Sequence record: PP400780
Direction: 5' to 3' (one strand)
Source of the DNA: Escherichia phage FL18
Length of the DNA: 64,000 bases
Numbering within the stretch: the stretch's first letter is position 1; each line of letters opens with the position of its first letter. Shown here in pieces: positions 1 to 16,689 of this stretch. Position numbers and translations under genes: made by a program. Under the pieces are notes generated by a model that ran no database searches, was not told where the DNA came from, and saw only the letters and a program-made list of their open reading frames with translations.

Positions 1-21
1 TCTTAACGAGAGGAAAATATT

Positions 22-975
22 ATGACACGTTCACATTACATTGATTATTTTGCAGGTCTTATCGCTAACGTTCATGCCCAACGTGCTTCTGGTTCATTAG
101 GATTTGATGTTCCACACCGAGTTGTAGTAAGTGGTATTCTTCGCGATTTTGGTACATACACAGGCCAAGAAAATCATATCTGTAAAGATACTCAGAATGC
201 GTATTCTCATTCATTAGGGACACTGCTTCAATGGTTCAAACGTTCTCGTTTATTATCTTCGACTGTAGCTCGCGATAACATTAAAAACTTTATGAAGCCG
301 AGCTTTATTAAATCTGCGACATCTAAAACCGATTTGGTTGAATTCACTATTGTTAATGATGTTAAAAAGACTCATTTGGCTGATTGGTTATCTACCATTC
401 CTGAAACTAAATTTGCTGATAAATTTGCTTGTGAATTCAATAACCAAGTGAATATGCTTTTTAAACATTCTCGTAAATTATTTACAGGTGGCGATGGTCG
501 TACAAATAAAGTTCATGCTAAAGATTGGGTTACTGCAGTATTCAAACCAACCGGTAATGGTAACGCATCATTGTCAATTGATATCCAGGTTCCTTATTAC
601 TACTCACGTAATCTCGGTACCATGAAAGCCGAAGAAATTAATAAGCGCAACAAAACCGTTCGTTCGCTGTCTTATAAACTTTGTACGATGTTACAGATTA
701 TGGATGTTGTTGAAATGTTCGACGAAACCGAAGATAACGGTTCAATGTTATTCAGTTCTAATATTCGAATTAAGCTGAAGAACCCTAATACATATAAACC
801 TAAGCCTATTAAAGAACCTAAAGTAGAAAAAGTTGATAACTTAAGAGAAGAACGCGAATATCTCAAATCTCGTCTGAAAGAAGTCGAAGCCCAGATTGCA
901 GAACAGACTAAATCGTTAAAAGCTCTGAATGCGAAAGCGGATGGTTTACGAAATGCCATTGAGGTATTGAAATGA
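22..975 (+). CDS. hypothetical protein upstream of nrdC (nrdC.x series), coiled-coil C-terminus
   Basis: 317-aa ORF, ATG start, stop overlaps next ORF start (ATGA); C-terminal heptad-like charged stretch. Confidence 0.6.
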   Translation: MTRSHYIDYFAGLIANVHAQRASGSLGFDVPHRVVVSGILRDFGTYTGQENHICKDTQNAYSHSLGTLLQWFKRSRLLSSTVARDNIKNFMKPSFIKSATSKTDLVEFTIVNDVKKTHLADWLSTIPETKFADKFACEFNNQVNMLFKHSRKLFTGGDGRTNKVHAKDWVTAVFKPTGNGNASLSIDIQVPYYYSRNLGTMKAEEINKRNKTVRSLSYKLCTMLQIMDVVEMFDETEDNGSMLFSSNIRIKLKNPNTYKPKPIKEPKVEKVDNLREEREYLKSRLKEVEAQIAEQTKSLKALNAKADGLRNAIEVLK

Positions 976-1286
976 AAAAGCGTCTATTAGAAGACATTGC
1001 AGCTTCAAGTAATTCCAGTTTAATTAAAATTATTATGGCCGGTGAAGAAGACGATCTGGAAATGCGCGGAAAGATTCATGGTTGTGATGATTATAGCAGC
1101 CCTATTAATTGGAATTCTGTAATGGTCATGGTTGAACGCCGCGAACGTGCTTCTAAAAACGTTCCTAATTGCCCTGAATGTGGAACTGAACAGGTGCAAT
1201 TGGTCCATTGGCAGACTAATAATCTTCGTTATAAATGTCGCCATTGTAAACACCGATTTGACCGAGAAGAAAATGACCAAGCGTAA
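972..1286 (+). CDS. zinc-ribbon protein
   Basis: 104-aa ORF with CPEC-x17-CRHC motif; translationally coupled to upstream ORF. Confidence 0.55.
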
Positions 1287-1431
1287 AGAATATATGGAGA
1301 CTGCTGAAAAGGCAGTCCGTGAATTAGCAATAGCTTATTATAATGAACATGGTAAATTTCCTGATAGATACAGCGTGCTTAAATCAGCTTTAACTCGTTC
1401 ATATAAAAAATATGCTATCAGAAGTAAGTGA
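1273..1431 (+). CDS. small hypothetical protein (52 aa)
   Basis: Internal ATG (MTKRKEY) of ORF 1132..1431; upstream part overlaps previous gene in another frame. Confidence 0.3.
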
Positions 1432-1517
1432 TATTATATACAAACATAAAGAACAAACGGGCCAAAGTCTTGATTACGACGAGACTTTTAAACAAGTACT
1501 AGGAATTAAGGAATAAT

Positions 1518-1781
1518 ATGTTTAAAGTATATGGTTATGATAGCAACATCCATAAATGTGTGTATTGCGATAATGCAAAACGTCTTTTGACCGTGAAGAA
1601 ACAGCCATTTGAATTTATCAATATTATGCCGGAAAAAGGTGTTTTTGATGATGAGAAAATTGCTGAGCTTCTGACTAAACTAGGTCGTGATACTCAAATC
1701 GGCTTGACAATGCCTCAGGTATTTGCTCCTGATGGAAGTCATATTGGTGGATTTGACCAACTGCGAGAATATTTTAAATGA
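1518..1781 (+). CDS. nrdC: glutaredoxin/thioredoxin NrdC
   Basis: 87 aa, CVYC active site, matches T4 thioredoxin as recalled; RBS AAGGA upstream. Confidence 0.95.
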   Translation: MFKVYGYDSNIHKCVYCDNAKRLLTVKKQPFEFINIMPEKGVFDDEKIAELLTKLGRDTQIGLTMPQVFAPDGSHIGGFDQLREYFK

Positions 1782-2113
1782 ACGATATTGATTTTGCCAA
1801 AGCATATAAATTTGTAGCAACTCTTCTCGGCCCTGACGCTCCTACTAAGCTTGAAGTTTTAAATTCGATTCCGACTTCATTGGTTCGAGATGCTGAAATA
1901 TGGACATGGGACGACCCAGCTGTTTGTGAAGACCTGTACATTCTGATGAATGACATGATGGTTAAAAAGCCTGAAACAATGGTTACTATTACTGTTGAAG
2001 AATATAATCGCCTACAAGCCATCGAAGAGCTTCTGTGGAATGTTGAATCTGATTTGCCATCTGGGCTAGAATCCTGGGTTGATTATGAAGAGCTCAATAA
2101 GCTCCGCGGTTAA
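1778..2113 (+). CDS. hypothetical protein (49.x-like)
   Basis: 111-aa ORF, ATGA overlap with nrdC stop. Confidence 0.6.
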   Translation: MNDIDFAKAYKFVATLLGPDAPTKLEVLNSIPTSLVRDAEIWTWDDPAVCEDLYILMNDMMVKKPETMVTITVEEYNRLQAIEELLWNVESDLPSGLESWVDYEELNKLRG

Positions 2114-2163
2114 ACCGTGGTATTCGGCTCGACTGTCTCCCATCGAGCCAGACGTCGAAACAG

Positions 2164-2192
2164 TTTACAACGACGAAGAAACATGTTATGAT
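2164..2192 (+). promoter_or_regulatory. T4-type early promoter (TTTACA -35, TGtTATGAT extended -10)
   Basis: GTTTACA followed about 17 nt later by TGnTATGAT; preceded by inverted repeat GGCTCGA..TCGAGCC. Confidence 0.4.
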
Positions 2193-2241
2193 GAGCCTTC
2201 AATAAATGAATTAATTGATATGGAAATGGGAAGAGATTATT

Positions 2242-2412
2242 ATGCAAGTTAAATTATTGTACCGTTTATTAAAAAATGGCAAGCATGATTGGTATTTGCT
2301 TATTAAAACCGATCAGAATTTTTTCTCCGGACACCCATTTACAGTTCGTCCTACTAAACGTCAGCTTCGCAAAGCTAAACGTTCTCATCGTAACTTTTAT
2401 AACGTTTACTAA
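2242..2412 (+). CDS. small basic protein with VRPTKRQLR tail motif
   Basis: First ATG of ORF 2215..2412 (track start is TTG); C-terminus shares motif with ORF 30152..30364. Confidence 0.4.
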   Translation: MQVKLLYRLLKNGKHDWYLLIKTDQNFFSGHPFTVRPTKRQLRKAKRSHRNFYNVY

Positions 2413-2414
2413 AT

Positions 2415-2422
2415 TATAAATA
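2415..2422 (+). promoter_or_regulatory. late promoter TATAAATA upstream of gene 49
   Basis: Exact TATAAATA about 30 nt upstream of the gene 49 ATG; T4 late promoters are defined by this gp55-recognised element. Confidence 0.55.
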
Positions 2423-2451
2423 CCCTTATCTATTTAAGGTAAGGGTTTATC

Positions 2452-2925
2452 ATGTTATTATCAGGCGCAAAATATAAAGAAGAAAAACAAAAATTTTATG
2501 ATGCACAGAATGGTAAGTGTCCTATTTGCCACCGTGAATTAGACCCTGATGTTCAAGGTAACCATCTTGACCACGACCACGAATTAAACGGGCCAAAAGC
2601 CGGTAGAGTTCGTGGATTACTCTGTAATCTGTGCAACGCAGCAGAAGGTCAAATGAAGCATAAGTTCAACCGTTCCGGTCTTAAAGGACGTGGTGTCGAC
2701 TACCTCGAATGGCTTGAAGCTCTTCTTGTTTATTTGAAACAAGATTATTCTGATAATAATATCCATCCTAATTTTGTTCCAGACAAAACTAAAGAGTTCT
2801 CAAGACTAGGTAAAGAGGAAATGATGGCTGAGATGCTTCAAAGAGGATTTGAATATAATGAATCTGACACCAAAACACAGTTAATAACTTCATTTAAGAA
2901 GCAGCTTAGAAAGAGTTTAAAATGA
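2452..2925 (+). CDS. 49: endonuclease VII (Holliday junction resolvase)
   Basis: 157 aa; CPICHRELDP..HLDHDHE..GLLCNLCNAAEG zinc/HNH-like core as in T4 endo VII. Confidence 0.95.
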   Translation: MLLSGAKYKEEKQKFYDAQNGKCPICHRELDPDVQGNHLDHDHELNGPKAGRVRGLLCNLCNAAEGQMKHKFNRSGLKGRGVDYLEWLEALLVYLKQDYSDNNIHPNFVPDKTKEFSRLGKEEMMAEMLQRGFEYNESDTKTQLITSFKKQLRKSLK

Positions 2926-3590
2926 ATGTAGTATATAAACTATCATTTATTAGTAGAATTAATGCTAAAACCCCGCCATATTATTATATTGGAAGTAAAA
3001 CCAATTGCACTTTTGACGGAACGAATATTATTGATAAAAATGGTAAATTTTATTATTCGTCTTCGTCATCTTCCGAATTTCAAAAAGCTTTGTTGAAAGA
3101 AACACCGAAAGTTGAAATATTATATTTTCAATTAGTCGGAGATGAACAAATAACTAGCATTGAAGCTGAATTTCAAAAGAATATAGAAAAAGATATATGG
3201 AATAAAGAGTATTTTAATTTAGCATATGCTAATGGTCAATTTACAACGTACGGTGTTTCTCCTTCTAAAGAAACTAGAGAAAAGCAATCAATAACCATGA
3301 TTAAAAGAAATCGTAATAAAGGTAAAAATCATGGATTTTATGGAAAGCATCATACTAATTTAGCCAGAAAGAAAATATCAGAAGCTTCTAAAAAATACTG
3401 GAAAGAAAATCCACATCATGGATTTTCGCACACAAAGGAAGCTAAAATTAAAATTGGAATTTCATCTTCTATCAGGCATAAAGGAAGTGGAAATCCGATG
3501 TACGGCGTAAAACCTTGGAAAACTCCTAGCGTTGTTCCATGGAATTTAGGTAAAATGAAAGAAATGGTAAAACGAGTAAAACATGCATAG
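2922..3590 (+). CDS. GIY-YIG-like homing endonuclease-like protein (degenerate motif)
   Basis: 222 aa; VYKLSF...YYIGSK resembles GIY-x(n)-YIG; NUMOD-like GSGNPMYG repeat; paralog of ORF 13128..13661. Confidence 0.55.
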   Translation: MNVVYKLSFISRINAKTPPYYYIGSKTNCTFDGTNIIDKNGKFYYSSSSSSEFQKALLKETPKVEILYFQLVGDEQITSIEAEFQKNIEKDIWNKEYFNLAYANGQFTTYGVSPSKETREKQSITMIKRNRNKGKNHGFYGKHHTNLARKKISEASKKYWKENPHHGFSHTKEAKIKIGISSSIRHKGSGNPMYGVKPWKTPSVVPWNLGKMKEMVKRVKHA

Positions 3591-4413
3591 GTATTATATA
3601 ATTTATAAAATAACAAATATAATTAATTCAAAGGAATATATCGGTGCGCATAGCACCGATAACATAAATGATGGTTATATGGGATCAGGAACATTGATTC
3701 GTGCCGCTTTATTAAAATATGGTAGAAAAAATTTTAATAAAGAAATTTTACATGTTTTTGATAATGAAAAACAAATGTATGATAAAGAAGCTGAACTCGT
3801 AACCGAAGAGTATTGTCTAAAAGAAAATACATATAATATTAAACCTGGTGGAAAAGGTGGAACTGCCTATGAACAGACACTTGAACATCGCCGCAAAAAT
3901 AGTTTAGCAAATAAAGGTAAAAAGAGAACAGAAGAAACTAAAATAGCTATTTCACGTGCTTTAAAGAAATATAAACGTACGCCAGAGCATCAAGCAAATT
4001 TAAATAAAGCCGTAAGCATAGCTATGAAGCGAAAAGATGTTAGAAGTAAATTAGCTGGAGAGCGGTCTGAGAAAGATAAATTACCTATATCAAACGGTGT
4101 TAAAAAATATTACAATTCTTTGAGTGAAGAAGAACGCGAACTTCATCGCAAGCGAATTATTGAAGGTAAAAAGAATTCTCCCATGTCATTGGAATCTAGA
4201 CAAAAGCTTTCAAAAGCTTTAAAAGGACTTCAAGTTGGTTCAAAAAATCCAATGTATGGAAAAATTTCTCCAACTAGCAAAACCGTTTCAGTTGACGGTA
4301 TTAAATATGATTCAATTAAAAAGTGCTCAAATGCCATAAAAGTTTCTAGACATCTTATACTAAAACGCTGTAATTCTACTGATGAAGCTTGGAAAAATTG
4401 GATATTATTATGA
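3583..4413 (+). CDS. GIY-YIG homing endonuclease (Seg/I-TevI-like)
   Basis: 276 aa; IYKITNIINSKEYIGAHS GIY-YIG motif, repeated KNSPMS/NPMYGK NUMOD3-like modules, basic C-terminal DNA-binding region. Confidence 0.75.
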   Translation: MHRYYIIYKITNIINSKEYIGAHSTDNINDGYMGSGTLIRAALLKYGRKNFNKEILHVFDNEKQMYDKEAELVTEEYCLKENTYNIKPGGKGGTAYEQTLEHRRKNSLANKGKKRTEETKIAISRALKKYKRTPEHQANLNKAVSIAMKRKDVRSKLAGERSEKDKLPISNGVKKYYNSLSEEERELHRKRIIEGKKNSPMSLESRQKLSKALKGLQVGSKNPMYGKISPTSKTVSVDGIKYDSIKKCSNAIKVSRHLILKRCNSTDEAWKNWILL

Positions 4414-4880
4414 ATTATGACAGAATATACCCGTGTTGCTTTGTGAATGGCCCTGGATGCAGGGTCGTTCTTTTCGTTACAGGTTGTTTGCATAAATGCG
4501 AAGGGTGTTATAATAAATCAACATGGAATGCTAGAAATGGTGTTCCATTCACTGGTGAAACACTAGAACAATTAATTGAATGTTTGAATAATGATTATAT
4601 AGAAGGATTGACTATAACCGGAGGTGACCCTCTTTATCCTGATAACAGAGACGTGATTCACTCTGTGGTTCAAACTATTAAAAATCTTTATCCCAATAAA
4701 AGCATTTGGTTGTGGACAGGATATAAGTTTGAAGATATTAAACAACTAGAAATGCTTAAATATGTTGATGTTATTATTGATGGGAAGTATGAGAAAAATC
4801 TTCCGACTAAAAAGCTGTGGCGAGGATCAGATAATCAGCGACTTTGGTCAAATACCGATGTGGTGTGGAAACATGATTAA
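4410..4880 (+). CDS. nrdG: anaerobic ribonucleotide reductase activating protein (radical SAM)
   Basis: 156 aa from internal ATG (MNYDRIYP); CLHKCEGC radical-SAM cluster motif; ATGA coupling to upstream gene. Confidence 0.9.
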   Translation: MNYDRIYPCCFVNGPGCRVVLFVTGCLHKCEGCYNKSTWNARNGVPFTGETLEQLIECLNNDYIEGLTITGGDPLYPDNRDVIHSVVQTIKNLYPNKSIWLWTGYKFEDIKQLEMLKYVDVIIDGKYEKNLPTKKLWRGSDNQRLWSNTDVVWKHD

Positions 4881-4995
4881 ATTGAATTATATTATGGATA
4901 CTATAAATGATATGATTTTTCATTTTGGTCCAGAATTTTATTCGCAGTATAGTTTAGTGCTTATCAATGCTTGGTTAATCAATTAAGGGTAAAAT

Positions 4996-5211
4996 ATGTA
5001 TAAATTTCGTAAAGGTTTAGCTGATTTTCTTACAACTGTAACATTCTTTCTGTTTATGGCAGTTGGAGCTATTTTCCTTATTCCTTTTATTGCTATATTT
5101 TTCGTGATTAGTTTGATTTCTCCAGAAAAAGGACTATCTTCTAGTGAGTTCAATGAGCGTCTGGATAAAATTACTAACAAGCTGAATGCGGTTCTTGATA
5201 AAAAGGATTAA
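4996..5211 (+). CDS. small membrane protein
   Basis: 71 aa with one long hydrophobic segment (LTTVTFFLFMAVGAIFLIPFIAIFFVISLI). Confidence 0.5.
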   Translation: MYKFRKGLADFLTTVTFFLFMAVGAIFLIPFIAIFFVISLISPEKGLSSSEFNERLDKITNKLNAVLDKKD

Positions 5212-5213
5212 TT

Positions 5214-5525
5214 ATGATTAGTTTTGAGCGGTATGTAGTAGAGAGTTGGAATGGTTTTGATATGTTCGGTAATGACTATTATTTCTATGAATGTAGTCTG
5301 AACCCAAGCTTCTGGGCTGGACGTGAACAAGACCTCGAAGAAATCAACGCTCGTGCCGATTTGTTAGGTGAACTGCCTACGGTTTATTTTACCTTTGATG
5401 AATCCGGCTTCGTTATCCAGGTTTATTTTCCTGAAGAAAACTCTGGTGAGGATTCTGTTAATCCTCCTTATTGGGCTTACCAAGGAATTATTTCTCGTGG
5501 AACAAAACTCGAACTTAAAGAATAA
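5214..5525 (+). CDS. hypothetical protein
   Basis: 103-aa ORF, ATG 2 nt after previous stop. Confidence 0.55.
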   Translation: MISFERYVVESWNGFDMFGNDYYFYECSLNPSFWAGREQDLEEINARADLLGELPTVYFTFDESGFVIQVYFPEENSGEDSVNPPYWAYQGIISRGTKLELKE

Positions 5526-5820
5526 GATTGAAGTCTATGGAATTCCAGATGAAGTAGGTCGTTGTCCTGGATGTCAATCAGTTACAAAACTTCTAAAGGA
5601 GCTCAATGCTCCTTTTACTTTCTATAAAGTTCTTACAAATAATGGTAAGATTGAGTATGATCGTCCACTGATTGTATCTCTTGCTAAACGCGCTGGATTC
5701 ACATCTCTTAACATTCGTTATCCAGTCATTTTCATTAATGATTCTAGACAAAAGAATATTAAACACTTCAAAGAAACTCTCATTTCACTTGGATATGATA
5801 GAGATATCATAGAAGATTAA
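5398..5820 (+). CDS. nrdH: glutaredoxin-like protein (NrdH-like); start uncertain
   Basis: C-terminal ~97 aa form a CPGC redoxin domain (from about 5530); only in-frame ATG/GTG lie 130-160 nt upstream, overlapping ORF 5214..5525. Confidence 0.5.
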   Translation: MNPASLSRFIFLKKTLVRILLILLIGLTKELFLVEQNSNLKNKIEVYGIPDEVGRCPGCQSVTKLLKELNAPFTFYKVLTNNGKIEYDRPLIVSLAKRAGFTSLNIRYPVIFINDSRQKNIKHFKETLISLGYDRDIIED

Positions 5821-5823
5821 GAC

Positions 5824-5846
5824 GGGCCCTCTGGGCCTTTCTTTCT
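5824..5846 (+). terminator. intrinsic terminator-like hairpin
   Basis: GGCCC-TCT-GGGCC stem-loop followed by T-rich tract just after nrdH-like stop. Confidence 0.45.
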
Positions 5847-5918
5847 CACATTCTGTATATTACCATTCTAAGCTATCGTTCCTTTCTTATCATTCCCTAA
5901 AATATTTTTCACAAAGTT

Positions 5919-5949
5919 GTTTACAACGAGCTCAAACCGTGGTATTATT
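5919..5949 (+). promoter_or_regulatory. T4-type early promoter
   Basis: GTTTACA then about 17 nt then TGGTATTAT. Confidence 0.45.
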
Positions 5950-5978
5950 AACATATGAATTGCCTTTGAGGATTTGAT

Positions 5979-6161
5979 ATGGTTGTGGTTGATAAAGAAA
6001 TTAAAAAGGGACAGTATTATCTTATTAATGGTAATGCTGTTCGCGTTACCTACGTAAATGGTTATGATGTTTATTATCTTATACTTAAGTTACATAAACA
6101 CATGATTTGTGACCGTGCTGTATTTAGTTCAGTTGCTAAGGAAATTAAACTCCATGGGTAA
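5979..6161 (+). CDS. hypothetical protein (55.x series)
   Basis: 60-aa ORF, ATG with GAGGA RBS. Confidence 0.45.
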   Translation: MVVVDKEIKKGQYYLINGNAVRVTYVNGYDVYYLILKLHKHMICDRAVFSSVAKEIKLHG

Positions 6162-6447
6162 AACGTATCGTCGTAAAGACTTAAAAGTGCGTGATTATGA
6201 CTATTTCGGAAAGCGTAAAGCTCCTGACGGTGTAAGTCATAAAGATATGGTTGAAAACATTTTTCGCTCAGATAAATGGCGTAGAATGAAAGGTATTGAT
6301 TCAGAAGTTAAAGATGAGTTAAATCGTCAATTACGCGGTGAAGTAAGAAAGTTGAAAAAATCAGTTTACATTGACGATGATTTTGATTATAATACTTCTC
6401 AACGAGTTGCTAAACGTAAATCAAACGAGTGTTATCGTTACAGCTGA
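6154..6447 (+). CDS. hypothetical basic protein (55.x series)
   Basis: 97 aa from internal ATG (MGKTYRRKD); Lys/Arg-rich. Confidence 0.5.
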   Translation: MGKTYRRKDLKVRDYDYFGKRKAPDGVSHKDMVENIFRSDKWRRMKGIDSEVKDELNRQLRGEVRKLKKSVYIDDDFDYNTSQRVAKRKSNECYRYS

Positions 6448-6454
6448 GGAAAAT

Positions 6455-6586
6455 ATGAATATCAAACGCATGCTTTTTAAGCAAGGGCTATATACTTTAA
6501 ATGTTACTCCAAAAGGCGATACAACTAAGTGGTCAGTAAATGACTGGATTAAATTTATTGATGAAAACGGTAATTGGGAAATTTAA
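6455..6586 (+). CDS. small hypothetical protein (43 aa)
   Basis: ATG preceded by GAGGA RBS. Confidence 0.3.
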   Translation: MNIKRMLFKQGLYTLNVTPKGDTTKWSVNDWIKFIDENGNWEI

Positions 6587-6787
6587 ATGAATCCTGAATC
6601 TAAATTATCGCAGCGAATTGCTGAAGAACGCGCCAAATTTTTCCAGAACATGAAACACAATGGTATTGAGGATGAAGTTTTTCTAAATTGGTTCTGGAAT
6701 AATAAGTATGCAGCATGTGAAGGAGCTTTGTCATTGTCAGTCGCAATGATGTACGAAGGCTGGAAGGGTGCCAAAAAGTTTAGCTAA
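6587..6787 (+). CDS. hypothetical protein (55.x series)
   Basis: 66-aa ORF, TAAATGA coupling. Confidence 0.5.
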   Translation: MNPESKLSQRIAEERAKFFQNMKHNGIEDEVFLNWFWNNKYAACEGALSLSVAMMYEGWKGAKKFS

Positions 6788-6805
6788 GGGCTTCGGCCCT
6801 TTTTG
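6786..6805 (+). terminator. intrinsic terminator (UUCG-loop hairpin + U-run)
   Basis: AGGGC-TTCG-GCCCT followed by TTTTT. Confidence 0.5.
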
Positions 6806-6840
6806 GATAATAAAATTTTTAACGTAATTGAGGATAATGT

Positions 6841-7167
6841 ATGACTATTCAAATTAAAAACGCCATCAATTCTTACGCATATGATAAAGTAGTTTCTTTG
6901 CTAGAAAAAGGCGATATTGTAACTCCTCAAATTTTGGATAAATGGGAAAAAGAGCTTCATCAAATGATGAAACAGAATGATCAGAAGATTGGACGCAACA
7001 CTGTACGTGAATTGTTGGTTCAATATATCTTGTCAGAATTTGATGTTAAAGCTTTTGGTGTAGAATCTAAAGCTTATCAAAAGCATGAAATTTCCGATAA
7101 AACTATTCGTCGCATGAAAAATCAACGCAAGAAAAAAATTGCAGACCTGAAAATTACTAAGGTATAA
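6841..7167 (+). CDS. hypothetical protein (55.x series)
   Basis: 108-aa ORF with ATG and GAGGA RBS. Confidence 0.55.
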   Translation: MTIQIKNAINSYAYDKVVSLLEKGDIVTPQILDKWEKELHQMMKQNDQKIGRNTVRELLVQYILSEFDVKAFGVESKAYQKHEISDKTIRRMKNQRKKKIADLKITKV

Positions 7168-7169
7168 TT

Positions 7170-7385
7170 ATGAACGAAGCTCTTATTAACGATTTGCGTC
7201 TTGCTGGATATGAAGTAAATACAAATGGCATTGGTTTAACTCAAATTGAAGGAAACGGATTCATCCTTGAGTATGAATTTAGCCAATGGTGGTTATATGC
7301 CAATTACGGCGAATTGATTGAATATGTTGACCAATTTGATTCACTAGATGCAGCTCTTGAAGCGGCTAAGTTGATGAATGTATGA
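7170..7385 (+). CDS. hypothetical protein
   Basis: 71-aa ORF tightly packed after previous gene. Confidence 0.5.
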   Translation: MNEALINDLRLAGYEVNTNGIGLTQIEGNGFILEYEFSQWWLYANYGELIEYVDQFDSLDAALEAAKLMNV

Positions 7386-7651
7386 AATTTATTAATATTT
7401 CTATTACTATTGAAAATTATGGCATTTTCTATGTTGACCAATACATGAAAATTTCATTTTTCCCAAATAAGACTGGTGTTGGATATTGGGAAAGTCATGT
7501 TTCTGAATTAAATGAAAGTGAATATGTTAGCACACATGAAAAGTTTTTAGACTTTTTATATCATGCAGATTTAACTAGTCATTATATAGATATTCATGAA
7601 TTTAAAAAGATGATGGAGAAAGTGTTCCAAGCATACTGTTTACTTAGATAA
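7382..7651 (+). CDS. hypothetical protein
   Basis: 89-aa ORF, ATGA overlap. Confidence 0.5.
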   Translation: MKFINISITIENYGIFYVDQYMKISFFPNKTGVGYWESHVSELNESEYVSTHEKFLDFLYHADLTSHYIDIHEFKKMMEKVFQAYCLLR

Positions 7652-7691
7652 CTGATATCCTCTATGCTTTAAGATAGATCTTCAAATATTA

Positions 7692-7700
7692 TGATATAAT
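7692..7700 (+). promoter_or_regulatory. extended -10 element (TGaTATAAT) upstream of gene 55
   Basis: TGATATAAT about 30 nt upstream of gene 55 ATG; TGCTTTA-like box lies further upstream at about 7665. Confidence 0.3.
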
Positions 7701-7729
7701 AGATCTATGAATTGAGCTAAGAGGTGAAA

Positions 7730-8287
7730 ATGTCAGAAACTAAGCCTAAATATAATTACGTAAACAATAAAGAGCTTTTACAAGCTATTATTGATTGGAA
7801 AACAGAATTAGCAAATAATAAAGACCCAAATAAAGTAGTTCGTCAGAATGATACTATCGGATTAGCCATTATGCTTATTGCAGAAGGCTTATCTAAACGT
7901 TTCAACTTTTCAGGATACACCCAGTCTTGGAAACAAGAGATGATTGCAGATGGGATTGAAGCCTCTATTAAGGGACTTCATAATTTCGACGAAACTAAGT
8001 ACAATAACCCGCATGCATACATAACTCGAGCTTGTTTTAATGCTTTTGTCCAACGTATCAAAAAAGAACGTAAGGAAGTTGCAAAGAAATATAGTTACTT
8101 CGTTCATAATGTCTACGACAGTCATGACGATGATATGGTAGCGTTGGTAGATGAAACGTTTATTCAAGACATCTACGATAAAATGACGCATTATGAAGAA
8201 TCCGCTTATAAAGCTCCTGGGGCTGAAAAGAAGGAAGTTGTTAGCGATTCGCCTAGTTTGGATTTTTTATATGAGGACGACAATTGA
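7730..8287 (+). CDS. 55: late-transcription sigma factor gp55
   Basis: 185 aa from ATG ([10 protein letters not shown]); matches T4 gp55 N-terminus and length; GAGGTG RBS. Confidence 0.9.
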
Positions 8288-8486
8288 CATCTCTAACTAC
8301 TTAGAAGAACCTTTTGACGAAGCAATCCCTTATTTGGTAAAACTGTTGGGTCGAGAATTTAAAATTAATTTTGACATCGACCCTTTGAACCCACATGACG
8401 TGTCATTTTCGATAAATGGGACTCCAGTTGAGTACGAGTTCCGTATTGAAGAGGACGGACGTTTTTATTTTAATTTAATGAGATAA
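8271..8486 (+). CDS. hypothetical protein (71 aa)
   Basis: Internal ATG of ORF 8193..8486 overlapping gp55 stop. Confidence 0.4.
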
Positions 8487-8487
8487 T

Positions 8488-8811
8488 ATGACTACCGAGA
8501 TTATTGAAAATAAAGAAGCAGAAGATGCAGTAGCTAAAATGCTACAAGAAATCCAAAAGAAAAATGAAGCTGAAGCACGTAAAAAATCCGAAAAGATTCT
8601 TAAAAAGAATCGTTTTGAACTAAACCGTCTTTATGCTCATGCTCAAGAAGCAGCAATTCAAAACAACTTCGAAGCTTACGAATATGCTATTAAGAAATCT
8701 CGGGATATTCTACGACAACCATATAATGACAAGTTAATTAAAATCCAGTGGGTTACTACTCGTCAGGCTATTGAGGACATCATTAATGGCGCTAGTTCAA
8801 ACAAAGTTTAA
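8488..8811 (+). CDS. hypothetical coiled-coil protein
   Basis: 107-aa ORF rich in E/K/A/Q. Confidence 0.55.
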   Translation: MTTEIIENKEAEDAVAKMLQEIQKKNEAEARKKSEKILKKNRFELNRLYAHAQEAAIQNNFEAYEYAIKKSRDILRQPYNDKLIKIQWVTTRQAIEDIINGASSNKV

Positions 8812-8992
8812 ACGTCTGAAGCTGAACGCAGGGTTCACCCTTAAATTGGGAGGTCCTCTTTGTGTTAAAATTTCTGAAAAGGAATATCACGACGGTTCTA
8901 TTACAGAAATTTGTCCGCCTATTGTAAAGGCACACCCAAAACAACTCGTGTGGGTTGATTCATTTCAAGTTAAGAAATGGTGGAAACGATGA
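8786..8992 (+). CDS. hypothetical protein (68 aa)
   Basis: ATG (MALVQTKFKR) overlapping end of upstream ORF. Confidence 0.35.
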   Translation: MALVQTKFKRLKLNAGFTLKLGGPLCVKISEKEYHDGSITEICPPIVKAHPKQLVWVDSFQVKKWWKR

Positions 8993-9031
8993 GAGAAATT
9001 GATTTAGGCATTTTCTGAGAGGTGCTTATGC

Positions 9032-9205
9032 ATGACGAACATCCCGACTTCTGAAAATTTCGATAAAATCCGTAAAGGCAAAGCAGAAAGAATGAGACGT
9101 TTTAAAGAGTCTTATGATAAAGCTAAAGCCGAAGGAACTATTACATACAAGCCCATTCGATTTAAAAGTTCAAATGAGCCTCTGTACGGTGTACTATGTG
9201 GATAG
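9032..9205 (+). CDS. small hypothetical protein (57 aa)
   Basis: ATG after GAGAGGTG RBS; below ORF-track length cut-off; ends at terminator hairpin. Confidence 0.35.
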   Translation: MTNIPTSENFDKIRKGKAERMRRFKESYDKAKAEGTITYKPIRFKSSNEPLYGVLCG

Positions 9206-9228
9206 GAACTCTTCGGAGTTCCTTTTTT
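9205..9228 (+). terminator. intrinsic terminator
   Basis: GGAACTC-TTCG-GAGTTCC perfect hairpin followed by TTTTTT. Confidence 0.6.
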
Positions 9229-9251
9229 GCTTTATAAACGGATGATAGAAT
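9228..9251 (+). promoter_or_regulatory. MotA-box middle promoter upstream of gene 47
   Basis: TGCTTTA box about 19 nt (centre to centre) upstream of TGATAGAAT extended -10. Confidence 0.45.
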
Positions 9252-9274
9252 GAATTAACTAATGAGGAAATAAT

Positions 9275-10294
9275 ATGAAAATTTTGCACTTAGGCGACTT
9301 CCATATCGGAGTCAAACAAGACGACCCATGGGTTCAAGATATTCAACGTGATGGTATTCGACAAGCAATTGAATACTCTAAGAAACACGGGATTAAAACT
9401 TGGATTCAGTACGGTGATTGGTTTGACGTCCGTAAAGCAATAACACATCGTACAATGGAATTCAATCGTGAAATCGTTGATATGATTTCTAAAGCAGGCA
9501 TTCACGTTCATGTCACGATAGGAAACCATGACATGGCGTTTAAGAATACAATAACACCTAACACTGTTTCTGAATTGTTAACTCAATTTGAAAACTTTAC
9601 TATTTACGAGCATCCGACTACTGTAGATTTTGACGGATGTCTGATTGATATCGTTCCATGGATGTGTGAAGAAAATACAGGTGAAATCTTAGAGCACATC
9701 AAGACTTCTTCTGCCGCATATTGTGTTGGGCACTGGGAACTGAATGGCTTTTATTTCTATAAAGGGATGAAGTCTCATGGGCTTGAACCTGATTTCTTAA
9801 AGACCTATAAACAAGTCTGGTCTGGCCACTTCCATACAATCTCTGAAGCTGCTAACGTCAAATATATTGGGACACCATGGACCCTTACTGCAGGTGATGA
9901 GAACGACCCTCGCGGATTCTGGGTATTTGACACTGATGTTGAACGTATGGAATTTATTCCTAATGAAACAACATGGCATCGACGAATCACTTATCCATTT
10001 AAAGGCAAAATCAATTATTCTGATTATACTAATCTAGCCGTACGTGTTATAGTATCAGAAATTGATTCAGAGTTGACTAAGTTTGAATCTGAACTTGAAA
10101 AAGTAGTTCACTCTCTTCGTATGGTTTCTAAAGTTGATAACAGTGTTGAATCTGATGACGACCAGGAAATCGAGATTAAATCACTTCAAGATATCATTAA
10201 AGAATATATTGACGCGATTCCAGATATCTCAGACGAAGACAGAGAAGCGCTGGTCAAATATTCCAACGAACTTTATATTGAGGCGACACAATGA
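9275..10294 (+). CDS. 47: recombination endonuclease subunit gp47 (Mre11/SbcD-like)
   Basis: 339 aa; phosphoesterase motifs LHLGDFH, GDWFD, GNHD, GHWE, GHFH. Confidence 0.9.
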   Translation: MKILHLGDFHIGVKQDDPWVQDIQRDGIRQAIEYSKKHGIKTWIQYGDWFDVRKAITHRTMEFNREIVDMISKAGIHVHVTIGNHDMAFKNTITPNTVSELLTQFENFTIYEHPTTVDFDGCLIDIVPWMCEENTGEILEHIKTSSAAYCVGHWELNGFYFYKGMKSHGLEPDFLKTYKQVWSGHFHTISEAANVKYIGTPWTLTAGDENDPRGFWVFDTDVERMEFIPNETTWHRRITYPFKGKINYSDYTNLAVRVIVSEIDSELTKFESELEKVVHSLRMVSKVDNSVESDDDQEIEIKSLQDIIKEYIDAIPDISDEDREALVKYSNELYIEATQ

Positions 10295-10548
10295 CTTTAG
10301 ATGAATTTAATAATGCTGGTCTTGGGCTTGAAGTTGAAATAGACGTTAAAGATGATGATGGATTCGAGAACACTATCAAGTATTGGATTGAACCATTACG
10401 TGTTGAAGGCAATGAAGTTAAAGCAGTTCATGTCTGCACCGACTGGGCTATTGAATTTAGCTTTAATATAATGGACAACGATACTCCCGGCTCTATTCTT
10501 AAAATGGCTGAAGCGTGTATTGAGGATGCGTATAATGACGAAGACTGA
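10291..10548 (+). CDS. hypothetical acidic protein (46.x series)
   Basis: 85-aa ORF, ATGA overlap with gp47. Confidence 0.55.
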   Translation: MTLDEFNNAGLGLEVEIDVKDDDGFENTIKYWIEPLRVEGNEVKAVHVCTDWAIEFSFNIMDNDTPGSILKMAEACIEDAYNDED

Positions 10549-10774
10549 TTATGAAATCCATCGTCATGAATTTAGTATTGGTGACGGTTATATTGGTATC
10601 GTTGAATGGACTGAGAATTACGAGGAATCAACTCCTCGTTTCTTTGGAACAATGTATGTTACCTGTGAGTACGCACCAGGTGTTGTTATGTATGCAGAAC
10701 TAGATGAATATTTTGCTGATAGGGATGACATGTTAAAATATGTAGAGGACTTCATTCGAAGAGAATACATATGA
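10535..10774 (+). CDS. hypothetical protein (46.x series)
   Basis: ATG with GAGGA RBS inside ORF 10520..10774 (track start is TTG). Confidence 0.5.
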   Translation: MTKTDYEIHRHEFSIGDGYIGIVEWTENYEESTPRFFGTMYVTCEYAPGVVMYAELDEYFADRDDMLKYVEDFIRREYI

Positions 10775-12459
10775 AATCATTTAAATTAAATCGTGTTCGT
10801 TATCAAAACATCATGTCGGTAGGTGGGAATCCTATTGATATCCAATTAGATAAAGTCCAAAAGACATTAATCACCGGTAAAAATGGCGGCGGTAAATCTA
10901 CGATGTTAGAAGCCGTTACTTTCGGACTTTTCGGTAAACCATTTCGTGATGTTAAGAAAGGACAAATCATTAATAGCACGAACAAGAAAGAGCTCTTAGT
11001 TGAGCTTTGGATGGAATTCGATGATAAAAAATACTTCATTAAACGTGGCCAAAAGCCCAATATTTTCGAAATCTCCGTTGACGGTGTTCGTCTCGATGAA
11101 TCTGCCAGCAGTCGTGACTTCCAAGAAGAATTTGAACGTAGCATCGGAATGTCATACGCGTCTTTTAAACAGATCGTTGTGCTTGGGACGGCAGGGTATA
11201 CCCCTTTCATGGCTCTTAGCACCCCTGCTCGTAGAAAACTTGTCGAAGACCTTTTAGAAGTCGGCACACTCGCTGAAATGGATAAAATCAATAAGTCTCA
11301 AGTTCGCGAACTTAATTCTCAGGGACAAGTTCTTGATGCCAAGAAAGATGGTGTTATCCAACAAATTAAGATTTATAACGAGAATATCGAACGTCAAAAG
11401 AAATTATCTGGTGATAATGTAGCGCGTCTACAGAATATGTATGACGACCTAGCCAAAGAAGCTCGTTCATTAAAAGCAGAAATCGAAGAAGCTAATGAGC
11501 GACTACTTAATATCGTTCTTGATGAAGACCCTACTGAGGCATTCAACAAGATAGGACAAGAAGCATTCTTGATTAAATCTAAAATCGACTCATACAACAA
11601 AGTTATTAAGATGTATCATGACGGTGGCACATGTCCTACTTGTGCATCACAATTGCACCAGGGTGACCCTATTGTCTCTAAGATTACCGATAAGCTTCAT
11701 GAATGTAATCACTCATTCGAGCAACTTACCTGTCACAGAGATAATCTGAGTGTCCTAGTTGATGAATATAGAGCTAATGTTAAGACTAAGCAGGACCTTG
11801 CATCTGATATTCGTACCAAGAAACAAGCAATGATTGCCACTATTGATAAAGCTAAGAAAGTTAAAGCTGCAATAGAACAAGCCTCGGCGGAATTTATCGA
11901 CCATGCTGATGAGGTAGCTTTGCTTCAAAAAGAACTTGATAAAATCATTAAAACAAAATCAGATATCGTTCTTGAAAAATATCATCGTGGTATTATCACA
12001 GATATGTTAAAAGATTCTGGTATTAAAGGTGCTATCATTAAAAAATATGTGCCTCTGTTTAATAAGCAGATTAACCATTATCTTAAAATCATGGAAGCCG
12101 ATTACGTGTTTTCTATTGACGAAGAATTCAATGAATCTATAAAATCACGTGGCCGTGAAGAGTTCAGTTATGCTTCATTTAGTCAAGGTGAAAAGGCACG
12201 TATCGATATCGCATTGTTGTTTACATGGCGAGATATTGCTGAAAAGGTTTCTGGTGTTAAAATCAACACTCTAATTCTTGATGAGGTTTTTGATGGTGCT
12301 GTCGATTCTGAGGCTGTTAAGGCTATAGATACCATCCTTGGTAGTTTACAAAATACTAACGTGTTCATTATCTCTCATCGAGACCATGACCCTCAACGTT
12401 ATGGACAACATCTTCAAATGAGCAAAGTTGGACGATTTACTGTGATGACTGTCTCATAA
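10771..12459 (+). CDS. 46: recombination endonuclease subunit gp46 (Rad50/SbcC-like ATPase)
   Basis: 562 aa; Walker A GKNGGGKST, central coiled coil with CPTC zinc hook, C-terminal LILDEVFDG Walker B/signature. Confidence 0.9.
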   Translation: MKSFKLNRVRYQNIMSVGGNPIDIQLDKVQKTLITGKNGGGKSTMLEAVTFGLFGKPFRDVKKGQIINSTNKKELLVELWMEFDDKKYFIKRGQKPNIFEISVDGVRLDESASSRDFQEEFERSIGMSYASFKQIVVLGTAGYTPFMALSTPARRKLVEDLLEVGTLAEMDKINKSQVRELNSQGQVLDAKKDGVIQQIKIYNENIERQKKLSGDNVARLQNMYDDLAKEARSLKAEIEEANERLLNIVLDEDPTEAFNKIGQEAFLIKSKIDSYNKVIKMYHDGGTCPTCASQLHQGDPIVSKITDKLHECNHSFEQLTCHRDNLSVLVDEYRANVKTKQDLASDIRTKKQAMIATIDKAKKVKAAIEQASAEFIDHADEVALLQKELDKIIKTKSDIVLEKYHRGIITDMLKDSGIKGAIIKKYVPLFNKQINHYLKIMEADYVFSIDEEFNESIKSRGREEFSYASFSQGEKARIDIALLFTWRDIAEKVSGVKINTLILDEVFDGAVDSEAVKAIDTILGSLQNTNVFIISHRDHDPQRYGQHLQMSKVGRFTVMTVS

Positions 12460-12513
12460 ACGCTTTAACATGATGTGGTTATAATGACCACATCAAATTA
12501 AATGGAGAACAAC

Positions 12514-12702
12514 ATGGAGTATTCAACCGGTCAACATCTTCTTGTTGTCCCTGAAATTAAAAAATATGTTTTGACCAATACGTTTTCAGGTGAAGAACAT
12601 ATTGTTACTGAACAAATGCTCAAATCTGCTTTTAAAGATGAGTATAATAAAATAATGTCTAATCGCAATTCCGCATGGACAGTTACCGACTTCTACGAAT
12701 AA
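12514..12702 (+). CDS. hypothetical protein (45.2-like position)
   Basis: 62 aa from second ATG with GGAG RBS. Confidence 0.45.
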   Translation: MEYSTGQHLLVVPEIKKYVLTNTFSGEEHIVTEQMLKSAFKDEYNKIMSNRNSAWTVTDFYE

Positions 12703-12714
12703 GAGAGAAATAAT

Positions 12715-13131
12715 ATGTTTACTACTGTTAAAGGTTTCACTGCTGCTGATCTGAAAGTTACTTCTATCCGTACTGACGCTAACCCACATAACCATAATCG
12801 TGTTCGTAAAGCATGGGTCCTGCATTGTGATGAAGCAAGTGCTAAAAAACTCCAATCTTTGCCACAAGAAACTCGTTTTATGATTTATGGTTTTATTGAT
12901 AACGATGTATCTGATATGTGGATTCATCTGATGCGTAAGCACTATAAAGATTCTATCGAAGCAGGTGCTAAAATCGTTCTTGATAAAGACGGTTCTGAGC
13001 GTCTGGAAGATTTCTACTGTGTTGATGCCGACGAACAACTAATTGCAGCTGGCGAAATTGTTGCTTCTAAAATTCCAGAATATATTGAATCACTGCCTGA
13101 AGCTATTAAAAAGCAGATGGTTGCTGCTTGA
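12715..13131 (+). CDS. hypothetical protein (position of T4 rpbA)
   Basis: 138-aa ORF between gene 46 and gene 45; assignment by synteny only. Confidence 0.55.
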   Translation: MFTTVKGFTAADLKVTSIRTDANPHNHNRVRKAWVLHCDEASAKKLQSLPQETRFMIYGFIDNDVSDMWIHLMRKHYKDSIEAGAKIVLDKDGSERLEDFYCVDADEQLIAAGEIVASKIPEYIESLPEAIKKQMVAA

Positions 13132-14028
13132 TAATTATGAATTTAATATATCTTATAACCTTTTATAATCGTGAGATTAAAAATGAATACCCGTGTTATT
13201 ATATAGGTTCTAAAGTTTCGTGTCATTTTAATGGAAAGGATATTATTGAAGATTCTACCGGTAAAATATATACCGGTAGTGTTAATTCCTCGTATTCTCC
13301 TTTATATAACAGATTAATAGACCAAGGCGAATATTCTGTAAAAATTTTAGGCGAAACCACATTAGACCCTAGAAGAATAGAAAGACTATTCCAACTCAAT
13401 GTTAAAGCCGTTTCAAATGAAAAATATTTTAATAAGGCTTATGCTAACGAGAAGTCTAGAATATCAGCTAAAGGATATGCACCGTATAAAAATTTAAAAA
13501 CAGGCAAAATAGTAAAACTTTCTAAAAACGAAATAAACGAAGATTACGTCGGTGTTAGAAAAAATTGCAAATTGTCGGAGAATCATTTAAACGCAATTAG
13601 AGAATTTCAAAAAAACATATTGGACCAAAGAACGAAGAGAGAAAGTTTCTATTCGTTCTAAAAAAATGTTTAACGATAGAGATTTTGCTTTAAAATTTAA
13701 AGATATAATGAATTCTCCTAATGTTAAAGATAAAATAAAAATATCTAAAACATTGTATTGGTCTAAACCTGAAAATAGAGCAAAGGCCTCTATCGCAGCT
13801 TCGAAAAGAAATGCAACCAAAGAATTTAAGGATAAATTCAGAAAATCTAAAGCTAGAGGTACATGGATATTTCATGAACAAAAATTAAAGGAATTGTGGA
13901 TTGCTTTAGGAAAACCAAGTTATATTACATTTAGAAAACATGCAATTCAGCATGGTTTTAATGATGAATCATACCAAGGTGCTATCCGGTCTTGGACAAA
14001 TTATTATGCTAATAGGAAACCTAAATGA
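13128..14028 (+). pseudogene. GIY-YIG-like homing endonuclease gene split in two frames (13128..13661 and 13666..14028)
   Basis: N-part has YYIGSK/KYFNKAYAN motifs paralogous to ORF 2922..3590; C-part is basic DNA-binding-like; frames differ by one at an A7 run (ctaaaaaaatg). Confidence 0.5.
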
Positions 14029-14711
14029 AACTTAGCCGTGAAACCGTAAATATTCTGAAAAACTTCGCTTCTATTAACTCTGGCATTCTGCTGAGTCAAG
14101 GTAAATTTATTATGACTCGTGCAGTTAATGGCACCACTTATGCGGAAGCAAATATCTCTGATGAAATTGATTTTGACGTAGCACTTTATGATTTGAATAG
14201 CTTCTTAAGCATTTTGAGTCTAGTGTCTGATGATGCTGAAATTTCAATGCACACTGATGGCAATATTAAAATTGCAGATACACGTTCCACAGTTTATTGG
14301 CCTGCCGCTGACAAGAGCACCATTGTTTTTCCTAATAAGCCAATTCAATTCCCAGTGGCTTCTGTGATTACTGAAATTAAAGCTGAAGACCTTCAACAAT
14401 TGCTTCGAGTTTCACGTGGACTTCAGATTGATACAATTGCTATTACAAATAAAGATGGTAAAATTGTTATCAATGGCTATAATAAAGTTGAAGATTCCGG
14501 ACTAACTCGTCCTAAGTATTCTTTGACTCTTACTGATTATGACGGTTCTAATAACTTTAACTTCGTAATCAATATGGCTAATATGAAAATCCAGCCAGGT
14601 AACTATAAAGTAATGTTGTGGGGAGCTGGTGATAAAGTTGCAGCTAAGTTTGAAAGCTCTCAAGTAAGTTATGTTATTGCGATGGAAGCCGATTCTACTC
14701 ACGACTTCTAA
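14025..14711 (+). CDS. 45: sliding clamp gp45
   Basis: 228 aa, near-identical to T4 gp45 as recalled. Confidence 0.95.
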   Translation: MKLSRETVNILKNFASINSGILLSQGKFIMTRAVNGTTYAEANISDEIDFDVALYDLNSFLSILSLVSDDAEISMHTDGNIKIADTRSTVYWPAADKSTIVFPNKPIQFPVASVITEIKAEDLQQLLRVSRGLQIDTIAITNKDGKIVINGYNKVEDSGLTRPKYSLTLTDYDGSNNFNFVINMANMKIQPGNYKVMLWGAGDKVAAKFESSQVSYVIAMEADSTHDF

Positions 14712-14752
14712 GTCAAAGCTTTACGTTTATTGTGATACGATTATGGAGGAGA

Positions 14753-14768
14753 AATCCTCCAGTTTAAT
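14753..14768 (+). other. GNRA-loop hairpin upstream of gene 44
   Basis: GGAGGA-GAAA-TCCTCC stem-loop 19 nt before the gene 44 RBS. Confidence 0.3.
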
Positions 14769-14786
14769 GATAATGAGGAAAATTAC

Positions 14787-15749
14787 ATGATTACTATCAA
14801 TTCCAAAGAACACATTCTAGAACAGAAATATCGTCCTTCTTCCATTGACGAATGTATTCTGCCTGCGTATGACCATGAAACATTCAAGTCTTTAGTATCT
14901 AAAGGAAAACTTCCTCATATTATTTTGCACTCTCCATCTCCTGGTACCGGTAAAACAACCGTAGCAAAAGCATTATGTAATGATATCAATGCCGAAATGA
15001 TGTTCGTCAACGGTTCTGATTGTAAGATTGATTTTGTGCGTGGTCCATTAACTGCATTCGCTCGTTCAGTCTCAATGGAAGGCAAGCCTAAAGTTATTGT
15101 TATTGATGAATTTGACCGTAGTGGCCTCGCCGAATCACAACGGCACCTTCGTACATTCATGGAAGAATTCTCTAGTAACTGTTCTATTATTATTACTGCC
15201 AACAACATCGATGGAATTATTGAACCATTACGTAGTCGTTGTCGAGTTATCGAATTCGGACGTCCAACCGAAGAAGATAAAATCTCAATGATGAAGAAAA
15301 TGATTCATCGTATGGTTGAAATCTGTAAGAACGAAAATATCGAAATCGCTGATATGAAAGTTGTTGCAGCTCTGGTTAAAAAGAACTTCCCAGACTTTCG
15401 TCGTACAATTGGTCAATTAGACCAGTACTCGTCTAAAGGTGTTCTTGATGCGGGTATTTTGTCTATCGTAACTAATGACCGTGGCACAGTCTCTGATGTT
15501 ATCGAAGCAATGAAGAACAAAGATATCAAACAGCTTCGTGCATTAGCTCCAAAATATGCCGCTGATTATTCATGGTTCATCGATAAATTAGTTTCAGAAT
15601 GTTATGACCAAGTTGCGCCTGGTAAAAGTATTATTTCGCTTTACGAAATTGCAGGTGAAAATAATAAGTTTCATGGACTAGCTAGTAATATTGAATTACA
15701 TGTTATGTATATGCTTCTTCAACTGACTTGTGAATTGACTTGGAAATAA
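14787..15749 (+). CDS. 44: clamp loader large subunit gp44 (AAA+)
   Basis: 320 aa; Walker [19 protein letters not shown] Walker B, SRC motif. Confidence 0.95.
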
Positions 15750-15750
15750 T

Positions 15751-16314
15751 ATGAACTTATTTGATGATGACGTCCAGCTTAACGAGCACCAAATTGCATG
15801 GAAGTCTAACGACGCTGATGCGATTCAAAAATGTGCTGACATGTTTAAAGAAAAACCTGAGAATGAATTCTTTAAAATCATTAATGCTATTAATGAAAAG
15901 AAATCTATGTCAATTGCTCAGGTCGACTACTCAAAATTTATGGTTGAGAACTCATTATCCCAGTTCCCAGAATGTATGCCAGCCGTTTACATGATGAACT
16001 TAGTCGGTTCTGAATTAAGTGATGAAGCGCACTTCAACTATATGATGGCGGCAATTCCACGTGGCCGACGATTCTCTAAATGGGCTAAACTAGTCGAAGA
16101 CACTTCAGAGTTACTAGTTATCAAACTGTTGATGAAACATTACACAATCAACATGAATGATGCTACCGAGTATAAGCGGCTCCTTGAAAAAAATAACAAG
16201 TTGCCAATAGTCCTTAAAGAACTGAAGGCCATGGTCACTGATGAGTTTCTCAAAGAAGTTACAAAAAATGTGAAAGAACAAAAACAATTTAAAAAATTAG
16301 CATTGGAATGGTAA
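15751..16314 (+). CDS. 62: clamp loader small subunit gp62
   Basis: 187-aa ORF immediately after gp44, followed by regA, as in T4. Confidence 0.9.
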
Positions 16315-16316
16315 AA

Positions 16317-16685: not shown

Positions 16686-16689
16686 AGCA

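Follow-up and report, generated by a model that had tools for sequence, protein, structure and literature searches.

A private nrdD deletion with a 9-bp microhomology joint beside segH in Escherichia phage FL18

How does a T-even-type phage come to carry nrdG, the gene for the activase of the class III ribonucleotide reductase (RNR), beside two endonuclease genes and without nrdD, the gene for the reductase itself? The question is raised by a stretch of 64,000 nucleotides (nt) from Escherichia phage FL18 (sequence record PP400780), here called the window, which is T-even-type DNA with a G+C content of ~35% and which, out of a genome of ~168 kb, is the part covered by the comparisons. In phage T4 the locus reads nrdC-49.3-49.2-49.1-pin-49-nrdD (with a group I intron that holds I-TevII)-mobC-nrdG-55.8-nrdH...55. 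An earlier note on this DNA gave that order as gene 49, nrdD with the I-TevII intron and nrdG, which is right except that mobC, between nrdD and nrdG, was left out. It also reported that nrdD is absent from its T4 position, that two GIY-YIG endonuclease open reading frames (ORFs) lie in its place between gene 49 and nrdG, and that nrdG has no partner in the window. These observations are borne out by the alignments described below, with the two ORFs at 2922-3590 and 3583-4413, while the explanations offered for them give way to a deletion of 1,961 bp.

The nrdD remnant and the deletion joint

When a complete NrdD was compared with the whole 64 kb by tblastn, the sole match was to its last 22 residues, at 3522-3587, and no second NrdD-like match was found in the window. 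The remnant, 69 nt on the + strand (3522..3590), comprises codons 584-605 and the stop codon, lies in place and in frame, and belongs to the allele that is linked to segH, the gene for a free-standing GIY-YIG homing endonuclease. It is identical at 66/66 nt to the nrdD of phages SF6, PP01 and moha, and at 38/66 nt to the segH-less allele of JK42, which is common to T4. A class III NrdD is a subunit of ~600 residues with a C-terminal RxCGY motif, and of this protein residues 584-605 alone survive. The motif, RRTCGYLG at NrdD residues 576-583, is deleted, so that the remnant begins four codons past the glycyl-radical Gly. With the glycyl-radical motif and all of nrdD upstream of it lost, there is no class III reductase in the window, and nrdG stands without its usual partner there. 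An ancestral absence of nrdD is ruled out by the in-frame remnant, which is still in place.

The deletion was mapped against four relatives. The missing DNA consists of the last 71 codons of an upstream homing endonuclease gene (HEG), here called HEG1, and of nrdD codons 1-583. In blastn with phage SF6, one alignment (window 2411-3529) covers gene 49 and the first 608 nt of HEG1, a second (window 3521-5985) covers the last 70 nt of nrdD and the sequence onward, and the two share 9 nt of the window. In 12 database records the locus reads 49 - HEG1 (273 aa) - nrdD (605 aa) - segH (276 aa) - nrdG. Since both HEGs normally flank an intact nrdD, nrdD was not replaced or displaced by them, as the earlier note had supposed, and HEG1 has itself lost 71 codons. 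The window carries a genuine deletion allele, private to it, of a known locus. The remnant does not differ from the corresponding sequence in relatives, and what is left of HEG1 is 99.8% identical in nucleotides to the JK42 gene, with no amino acid change, which argues for a recent event.

The alignment of this junction with T-even relatives, which had been suggested as a search for a deletion scar, gives the 9-bp sequence AACTCCTAG (3521..3529, unstranded), a perfect microhomology present in both parental sequences and kept in a single copy. With a direct repeat at both breakpoints, one copy kept and no filler DNA, this is a microhomology joint. At the breakpoint HEG1 of JM17, a Mosigvirus, reads ...GGAAAACTCCTAGAGC (in longer context ...CCTTGGAAAACTCCTAGAGC) and the nrdD tail of the donor type reads ...TTGGAACTCCTAGCG (in longer context ...ATCTTGGAACTCCTAGCGTT), and there is just one exact copy of AACTCCTAG in the JM17 interval that runs from gene 49 through nrdD. 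If breakpoint pairs are drawn at random in a reconstructed parent, a match of at least 6 bp has a probability of 0.003 and one of at least 9 bp a probability of ~1e-4; the joint therefore bears the signature of a biological microhomology event and not of an arbitrary excision or of a join made by an assembler. Stronger repeats were available in the interval, where a score of at least 9 is reached by ~146 repeat pairs. In a first reconstruction, in which JK42 and SF6 stood in for the parents and the pair scored 6 bp plus 2 (the perfect 9-mer appears with the JM17 backbone), 1171 repeat pairs scored higher. The repeat that was used is not the strongest in the interval, and repeat strength alone therefore does not account for the site.

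The product of the joint is an ORF of 222 aa (2922..3590, + strand; PHROG 7504, NUMOD3), which is in frame with both parental frames and ends at the native nrdD stop. It joins HEG1 residues 1-202 to the NrdD tail (residues 584-605); both parents have T201 and P202, and the NrdD residues past them are 586-605, i.e. 20 residues. The HEG1-derived part (2922..3527, + strand), a divergent GIY-YIG nuclease domain followed by a NUMOD3 linker, shows zero mismatches to the HEG1 protein of JK42, and the last 22 residues of the fusion are identical to those of NrdD in segH-bearing phages.

Origin of the joint

The joint coincides with a change of relative along the window. Over 1-3529 JM17 is 99.49% identical and collinear and stops exactly at the joint, and Tequatrovirus-like phages are not the closest relatives there. 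From 3530 to 4409 JM17 has no counterpart and the sequence is that of segH-bearing Tequatrovirus-like phages; from 4410 to ~7900 JM17 is 61-91% identical or unalignable, and over 3522-7664 the identity is 97.8% to SHFML-26 and 97.4% to PP01. The window is JM17-like again from ~7900, inside gene 55 (98.9% over 7665-17811), where Tequatrovirus-like phages are clearly lower. In 100-nt bins the identity to SHFML-26 is 100% through bin 7801 and drops to 91% at bin 7901 and beyond, while that to JM17 is 81% in bin 7801 and 97-99% from bin 7901.

A Tequatrovirus-like donor tract of ~4.4 kb (3522..7900, unstranded) thus lies inside a JM17-like Mosigvirus backbone, and it contains the recoded nrdD tail, segH, nrdG, 55.8, nrdH, 55.x and the 5' part of gene 55. 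It has the make-up of a homing-associated co-conversion tract, i.e. a HEG with its donor flanks in a recipient backbone and a recoded target adjoining it. To judge from these alignments, its right end is a homologous crossover at ~7880-7920 in gene 55, the late sigma factor gene (7724..8287, + strand), and its left end is the 9-bp illegitimate joint. The closest relatives of HEG1 (99.7-99.8%: JK42, AV118, AV121, FL08 and JM17) belong to phages that are without segH wherever this was checked, and the donor-like PP01 and SHFML-26 are without HEG1.

The left edge of the tract also falls on a boundary between nrdD alleles. The nrdD genes of segH-bearing and segH-less phages (JK42, T4) differ only in the last 66 nt, where the two alleles split sharply from codon 584, being >90% identical upstream, and the tail changes from NPNERGFNLGKNKEIMHRVKHQ in segH-less phages to TPSVVPWNLGKMKEMVKRVKHA in segH-bearing ones. 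The first base specific to the segH allele, C3523, lies within the microhomology, so that the right breakpoint coincides with the left edge of the block specific to the donor. The other end of the gene differs in phages with and without HEG1, which share 33-49 identities per 60 nt over the first ~240 nt of nrdD and 53-60 per 60 elsewhere, with the N-terminus MSLEKDVLNFISNKDKELNTEN in HEG1-bearing and MTIEKEIEGLIHKTNKDLLNEN in HEG1-less phages. In the double-HEG arrangement nrdD is bracketed by two HEG cassettes, each of which brings its own version of an nrdD end. A recoded end of the neighbouring gene is the usual picture for free-standing HEGs that target an adjoining gene, and the pattern suggests the 5' end of nrdD as the target of HEG1 and its 3' end as that of SegH.

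The deletion most likely either accompanied SegH homing as a side effect or came later, through microhomology. An even chance is given to the reading in which a JM17-like genome (49-HEG1-nrdD-nrdG) gained the segH tract and the left joint formed during or after the repair of a SegH break; that the joint arose during the SegH-initiated repair itself is put at even or slightly below. SegH would then be the maker of the break, and the events would have followed one of two routes, in which the recipient would be a JM17-like Mosigvirus with the order 49-HEG1-nrdD-nrdG and the donor a Tequatrovirus-like phage with the segH tract. In the first route SegH would cut the 3' end of the recipient nrdD, and the donor would be copied leftwards through segH and the recoded tail. 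The copied strand, while still within the donor-specific block, would have no homology to the resected left arm and so could anneal to it by microhomology only, for which AACTCCTAG in HEG1 is the sole exact match; past this block, ordinary homology would take over. An illegitimate joint would be expected inside or at the edge of the block of heterology, because the strand has only microhomology there. In this way AACTCCTAG in the recipient HEG1 would pair with its copy in the donor, at the point where the donor-specific nrdD tail begins, with the loss of the 1,961 bp, and the right end of the tract would be settled by ordinary homologous recombination inside gene 55. In the second route SegH would cut its own segH-bearing allele and microhomology would close the break, which yields the same product. 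SegH reportedly cleaves both segH-less and segH-bearing DNA near its gene (Sandegren, Nord and Sjoberg 2005, NAR 33:6203); the literature that mentions SegH, when searched for the cleavage site, gave only passing citations of that paper.

In its strictest form, this reading makes the locus the one-step footprint of aberrant SegH homing between two genera, in which a HEG destroyed both its own target and a rival HEG, a proposal that is tentative and held with slightly less than even confidence. The involvement of homing endonucleases that the earlier note proposed may hold in this mechanistic sense, the joint being both the left end of the segH tract and the edge of the recoded tail, and not by replacement of nrdD.

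The alternative that survives best, tenable though clearly short of an even chance, is that segH homed normally, giving 49-HEG1-nrdD-segH-nrdG, and that slippage or an illegitimate deletion between the copies of AACTCCTAG followed later, with no endonuclease. Such a double-HEG arrangement does exist in the 12 records named above, and phage CJY920 has an independent nrdD deletion, at the 8-bp microhomology GAAGGATT, with no HEG at the joint. The nrdD gene of T4 is dispensable in aerobic culture, so that a deletion would be tolerated; a literature search for direct statements on this dispensability found nothing specific. Deletions between short direct repeats are said to be classical in T-even phages (Pribnow 1981; Singer and Westlye 1988). 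A later deletion requires an extra event, however, and also a positional coincidence, in which the right breakpoint happens to lie only a few bases from where the donor block begins on its left (~10 of ~2000 positions) with some 146 repeat pairs of at least 9 bp on offer in the interval. Moreover, its intermediate is missing among the records, where both HEGs and an intact nrdD were not found together in any JM17-like backbone.

Several points weigh against SegH-initiated repair as the origin of the joint. A two-step history, with a crossover inside nrdD and a later slippage, yields the same sequence, and the abrupt change between alleles could be no more than the point where the conserved stretch that codes for the glycyl-radical region ends. 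Among the donor-like records identity reaches 97-98% and no higher. The joint is known from assembled sequence, and the view covers 64 kb of a genome of ~168 kb.

An artefact of assembly or of the library, either a chimera of co-cultured Mosigvirus and Tequatrovirus or a misassembly in which nrdD was dropped, is improbable. The window is indeed a mosaic of two genera, and its joint occurs in no other sequence of the collections searched: no record spans it among 50,697 phage records compared by megablast, exact searches for it in IMG/VR, JGI metagenomes and GTDB genomes gave no match, and neither did an exact look-up of the fusion protein in a gene-position index. Assemblers, however, join sequences at shared k-mers of at least ~21 nt, and the parents have 9 bp in common here; the joint preserves the reading frame and the native stop/start overlap with segH, its microhomology has the probability of ~1e-4 given above, and such mosaicism is normal in T-even phages. 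Least probable of all is that nrdD was relocated or lies elsewhere in the genome, as the earlier note had allowed, or that endonuclease genes were inserted in its place, for although the 64 kb are the inspectable part of the genome, the remnant is in place and in frame, a second NrdD-like match was not found in the window, nrdD lies between gene 49 and nrdG at every inspected locus, the distance between these two genes exceeds 1.7 kb throughout 1318 related records with a single exception, and in relatives the two HEGs enclose an intact nrdD.

The scar is unusually legible, since within the same nine bases the recipient backbone ends, the segH tract starts and the recoded tail has its first base, and it offers a testable case of free-standing homing endonucleases that cause the collateral loss of a target gene and of neighbouring HEGs. 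If the one-step reading is true, the locus would be a natural example, at single-base resolution, of gene loss driven by a HEG and of competition of HEG against HEG. HEG1 has lost both its C-terminal region and its right homology arm, and segH is intact. The phage is also a natural nrdD-null, nrdG-plus genotype, which allows one to ask whether the activase works without its reductase and what weight the phage class III RNR has in anaerobic, gut-like growth.

Endonuclease genes, nrdG and their neighbours

HEG1 has the alpha/beta fold of GIY-YIG nucleases. In a 26-sequence family alignment with bona fide PF01541 members, residues Y5, Y22 and G24 of the GIY and YIG motifs are invariant or nearly so, and the counterparts of the catalytic Glu and Asn of I-TevI (E75, N90) are E81 and N99, the sole fully invariant columns. 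The HEG1 subfamily has no Arg at the position of I-TevI R27 (YYYIGSKT--NCTF), and the conserved R12, between the GIY and YIG motifs, might substitute for it. The earlier note called the 222-aa ORF degenerate, which is right as far as this Arg is concerned; the ORF is really a truncated HEG1 fused to the last 22 codons of nrdD. The fused copy is without residues 203-273, the C-terminal 71 of the 273-aa parent, and so is not a complete modular endonuclease with a C-terminal DNA-binding region. By analogy with the I-TevI type of architecture, the lost region is presumably the DNA-binding one, and the predicted model has low confidence there.

A second HEG1-like (Seg-like) gene lies between rpbA and gene 45, where it is split between two frames into ORFs of 177 aa (13128-13661) and 120 aa (13666-14028). 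The JM17 sequence, annotated as two ORFs, is 100% identical, and other relatives have a single ORF with 949-950 nt aligned instead of 951, which suggests a frameshifted pseudogene.

The 276-aa ORF (3583..4413, + strand), which the earlier note rightly took for a canonical GIY-YIG/NUMOD endonuclease, is segH. It is intact, lies directly upstream of nrdG and matches PHROG 314 (2e-60), NUMOD3 and, weakly, the I-TevI DNA-binding domain. Its product is identical to the characterised SegH of T6 (AY262137) at 269/276 aa, i.e. 97.5%, and the gene is 99.3-99.6% identical in nucleotides to those of RB3, PP01 and others, with 99.5-99.6% for RB3, LZ2 and PP01. The start of segH overlaps the stop of the upstream ORF, an overlap that is native and kept (ATGCATAG), and its stop overlaps the ATG of nrdG.

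The nrdG gene (4410..4880, + strand) is intact and codes for the class III RNR activase of 156 aa, with the CxxxCxxC motif as CLHKCEGC and with the Pfam domains Fer4_12 (PF13353, 5e-49) and Radical_SAM (PF04055, 1e-7). It is collinear with T4 NrdG and identical to relatives at 150-153/156 aa. It carries one private change, G151V (window 4860-4862), at a position that is Gly in T4, SF6, PP01, moha, JK42 and CJY920; this might reflect relaxed constraint on an orphan activase, and a single change proves nothing. The gene is orphaned, not yet decayed, and its product is probably idle.

Along the + strand the window carries nrdC (1518-1781), small ORFs, gene 49, the 222-aa ORF, segH, nrdG, 55.8, nrdH, 55.x and gene 55. 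Gene 49 (2452..2925, + strand), which codes for the recombination endonuclease VII of 157 aa (Pfam PF02945 and PF09124), is intact and ~100% identical to its JM17 counterpart. An exact match to the T4 late-promoter motif TATAAATA stands upstream of it (2415..2422, + strand). There are 3 copies of this motif in the 64 kb and ~8 expected from shuffles, a scarcity that probably reflects a window holding mostly early and middle genes.

T4, moha and JK42 have pin, the gene for the Lon protease inhibitor, ahead of gene 49; the window has no pin there. A second private deletion is ruled out for pin, as the pin-less order is contiguous in 145 records, JM17, ST0 and Shf125875 among them. In moha, pin stands between two small paralogous ORFs, and an ORF of 65 aa in the window (2215-2412) resembles a chimera of these two that changes from one to the other at ACTTTTATA, with the joint near 2395-2404.

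Comparison with known loci

All the parts of this locus are known, namely endonuclease VII, a Seg-like HEG, SegH and NrdG, and the repeat-mediated loss of a dispensable gene is ordinary phage genetics. With T4 the window shares the flanking genes and their order, nrdC ... 49 ... nrdG, 55.8, nrdH ... 55. It differs in being without nrdD, the intron, I-TevII, the HNH endonuclease gene mobC and pin, in having segH in place of mobC, and in having HEG1 in addition.

Among relatives JK42 and JM17 have the first HEG only, and PP01, moha, SHFML-26 and T6 the second only. The 49-nrdD-segH-nrdG locus of T6, RB3, LZ2 and PP01 resembles the window in that segH is directly upstream of nrdG and overlaps the upstream ORF at ATGCATAG, and in sharing the recoded form of the last 22 nrdD codons. 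In the window, by contrast, nrdD is missing upstream of codon 584 and its tail is fused to another endonuclease gene.

The nearest arrangement is the double-HEG locus, carried by Pu-Krd-SF1/2/5/6/7, OES_C-3, F26, Lv5cm and PD112, for which the order in Pu-Krd-SF6 is 49 - HEG (273 aa) - nrdD (605 aa) - HEG (276 aa) - nrdG. Both endonuclease genes are shared with the window in the same order and orientation, at 98% and 99.4% nucleotide identity. These phages keep the 273-aa HEG1 and the 605-aa NrdD, whereas the window is without the intervening 1,961 bp and has a JM17-like backbone.

Among the 1318 related records only that of Escherichia phage CJY920 (PQ349265, flagged UNVERIFIED) shares with the window a distance of less than 1.7 kb between gene 49 and nrdG. 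This phage too has an in-frame microhomology deletion of nrdD, which differs in that codons 1-9 of nrdD run into NrdG at residue ~66 (MTIEKEIEG/LTITGG) through the 8-bp GAAGGATT, at 3013-3345. In CJY920 nrdG is also destroyed and no endonuclease genes are left at the locus. The native nrdG stop is lost in that phage, and the ORF reads on as ...KHDFSFWSRILFAV*.

A further parallel comes from a 2026 paper in Nat Commun on T6, which describes tandem amplification linked to SegB, with microhomology and a C-terminally truncated seg gene (PMC13096335). As in the window, the rearrangement adjoins a seg gene, the joint has microhomology and an endonuclease has lost its C-terminus (PMC13096335). In T6 a defence system selected the amplification (PMC13096335), whereas the rearrangement in the window is a deletion with no known selection. 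The SegB rearrangements of T6 are a precedent for microhomology events associated with seg genes.

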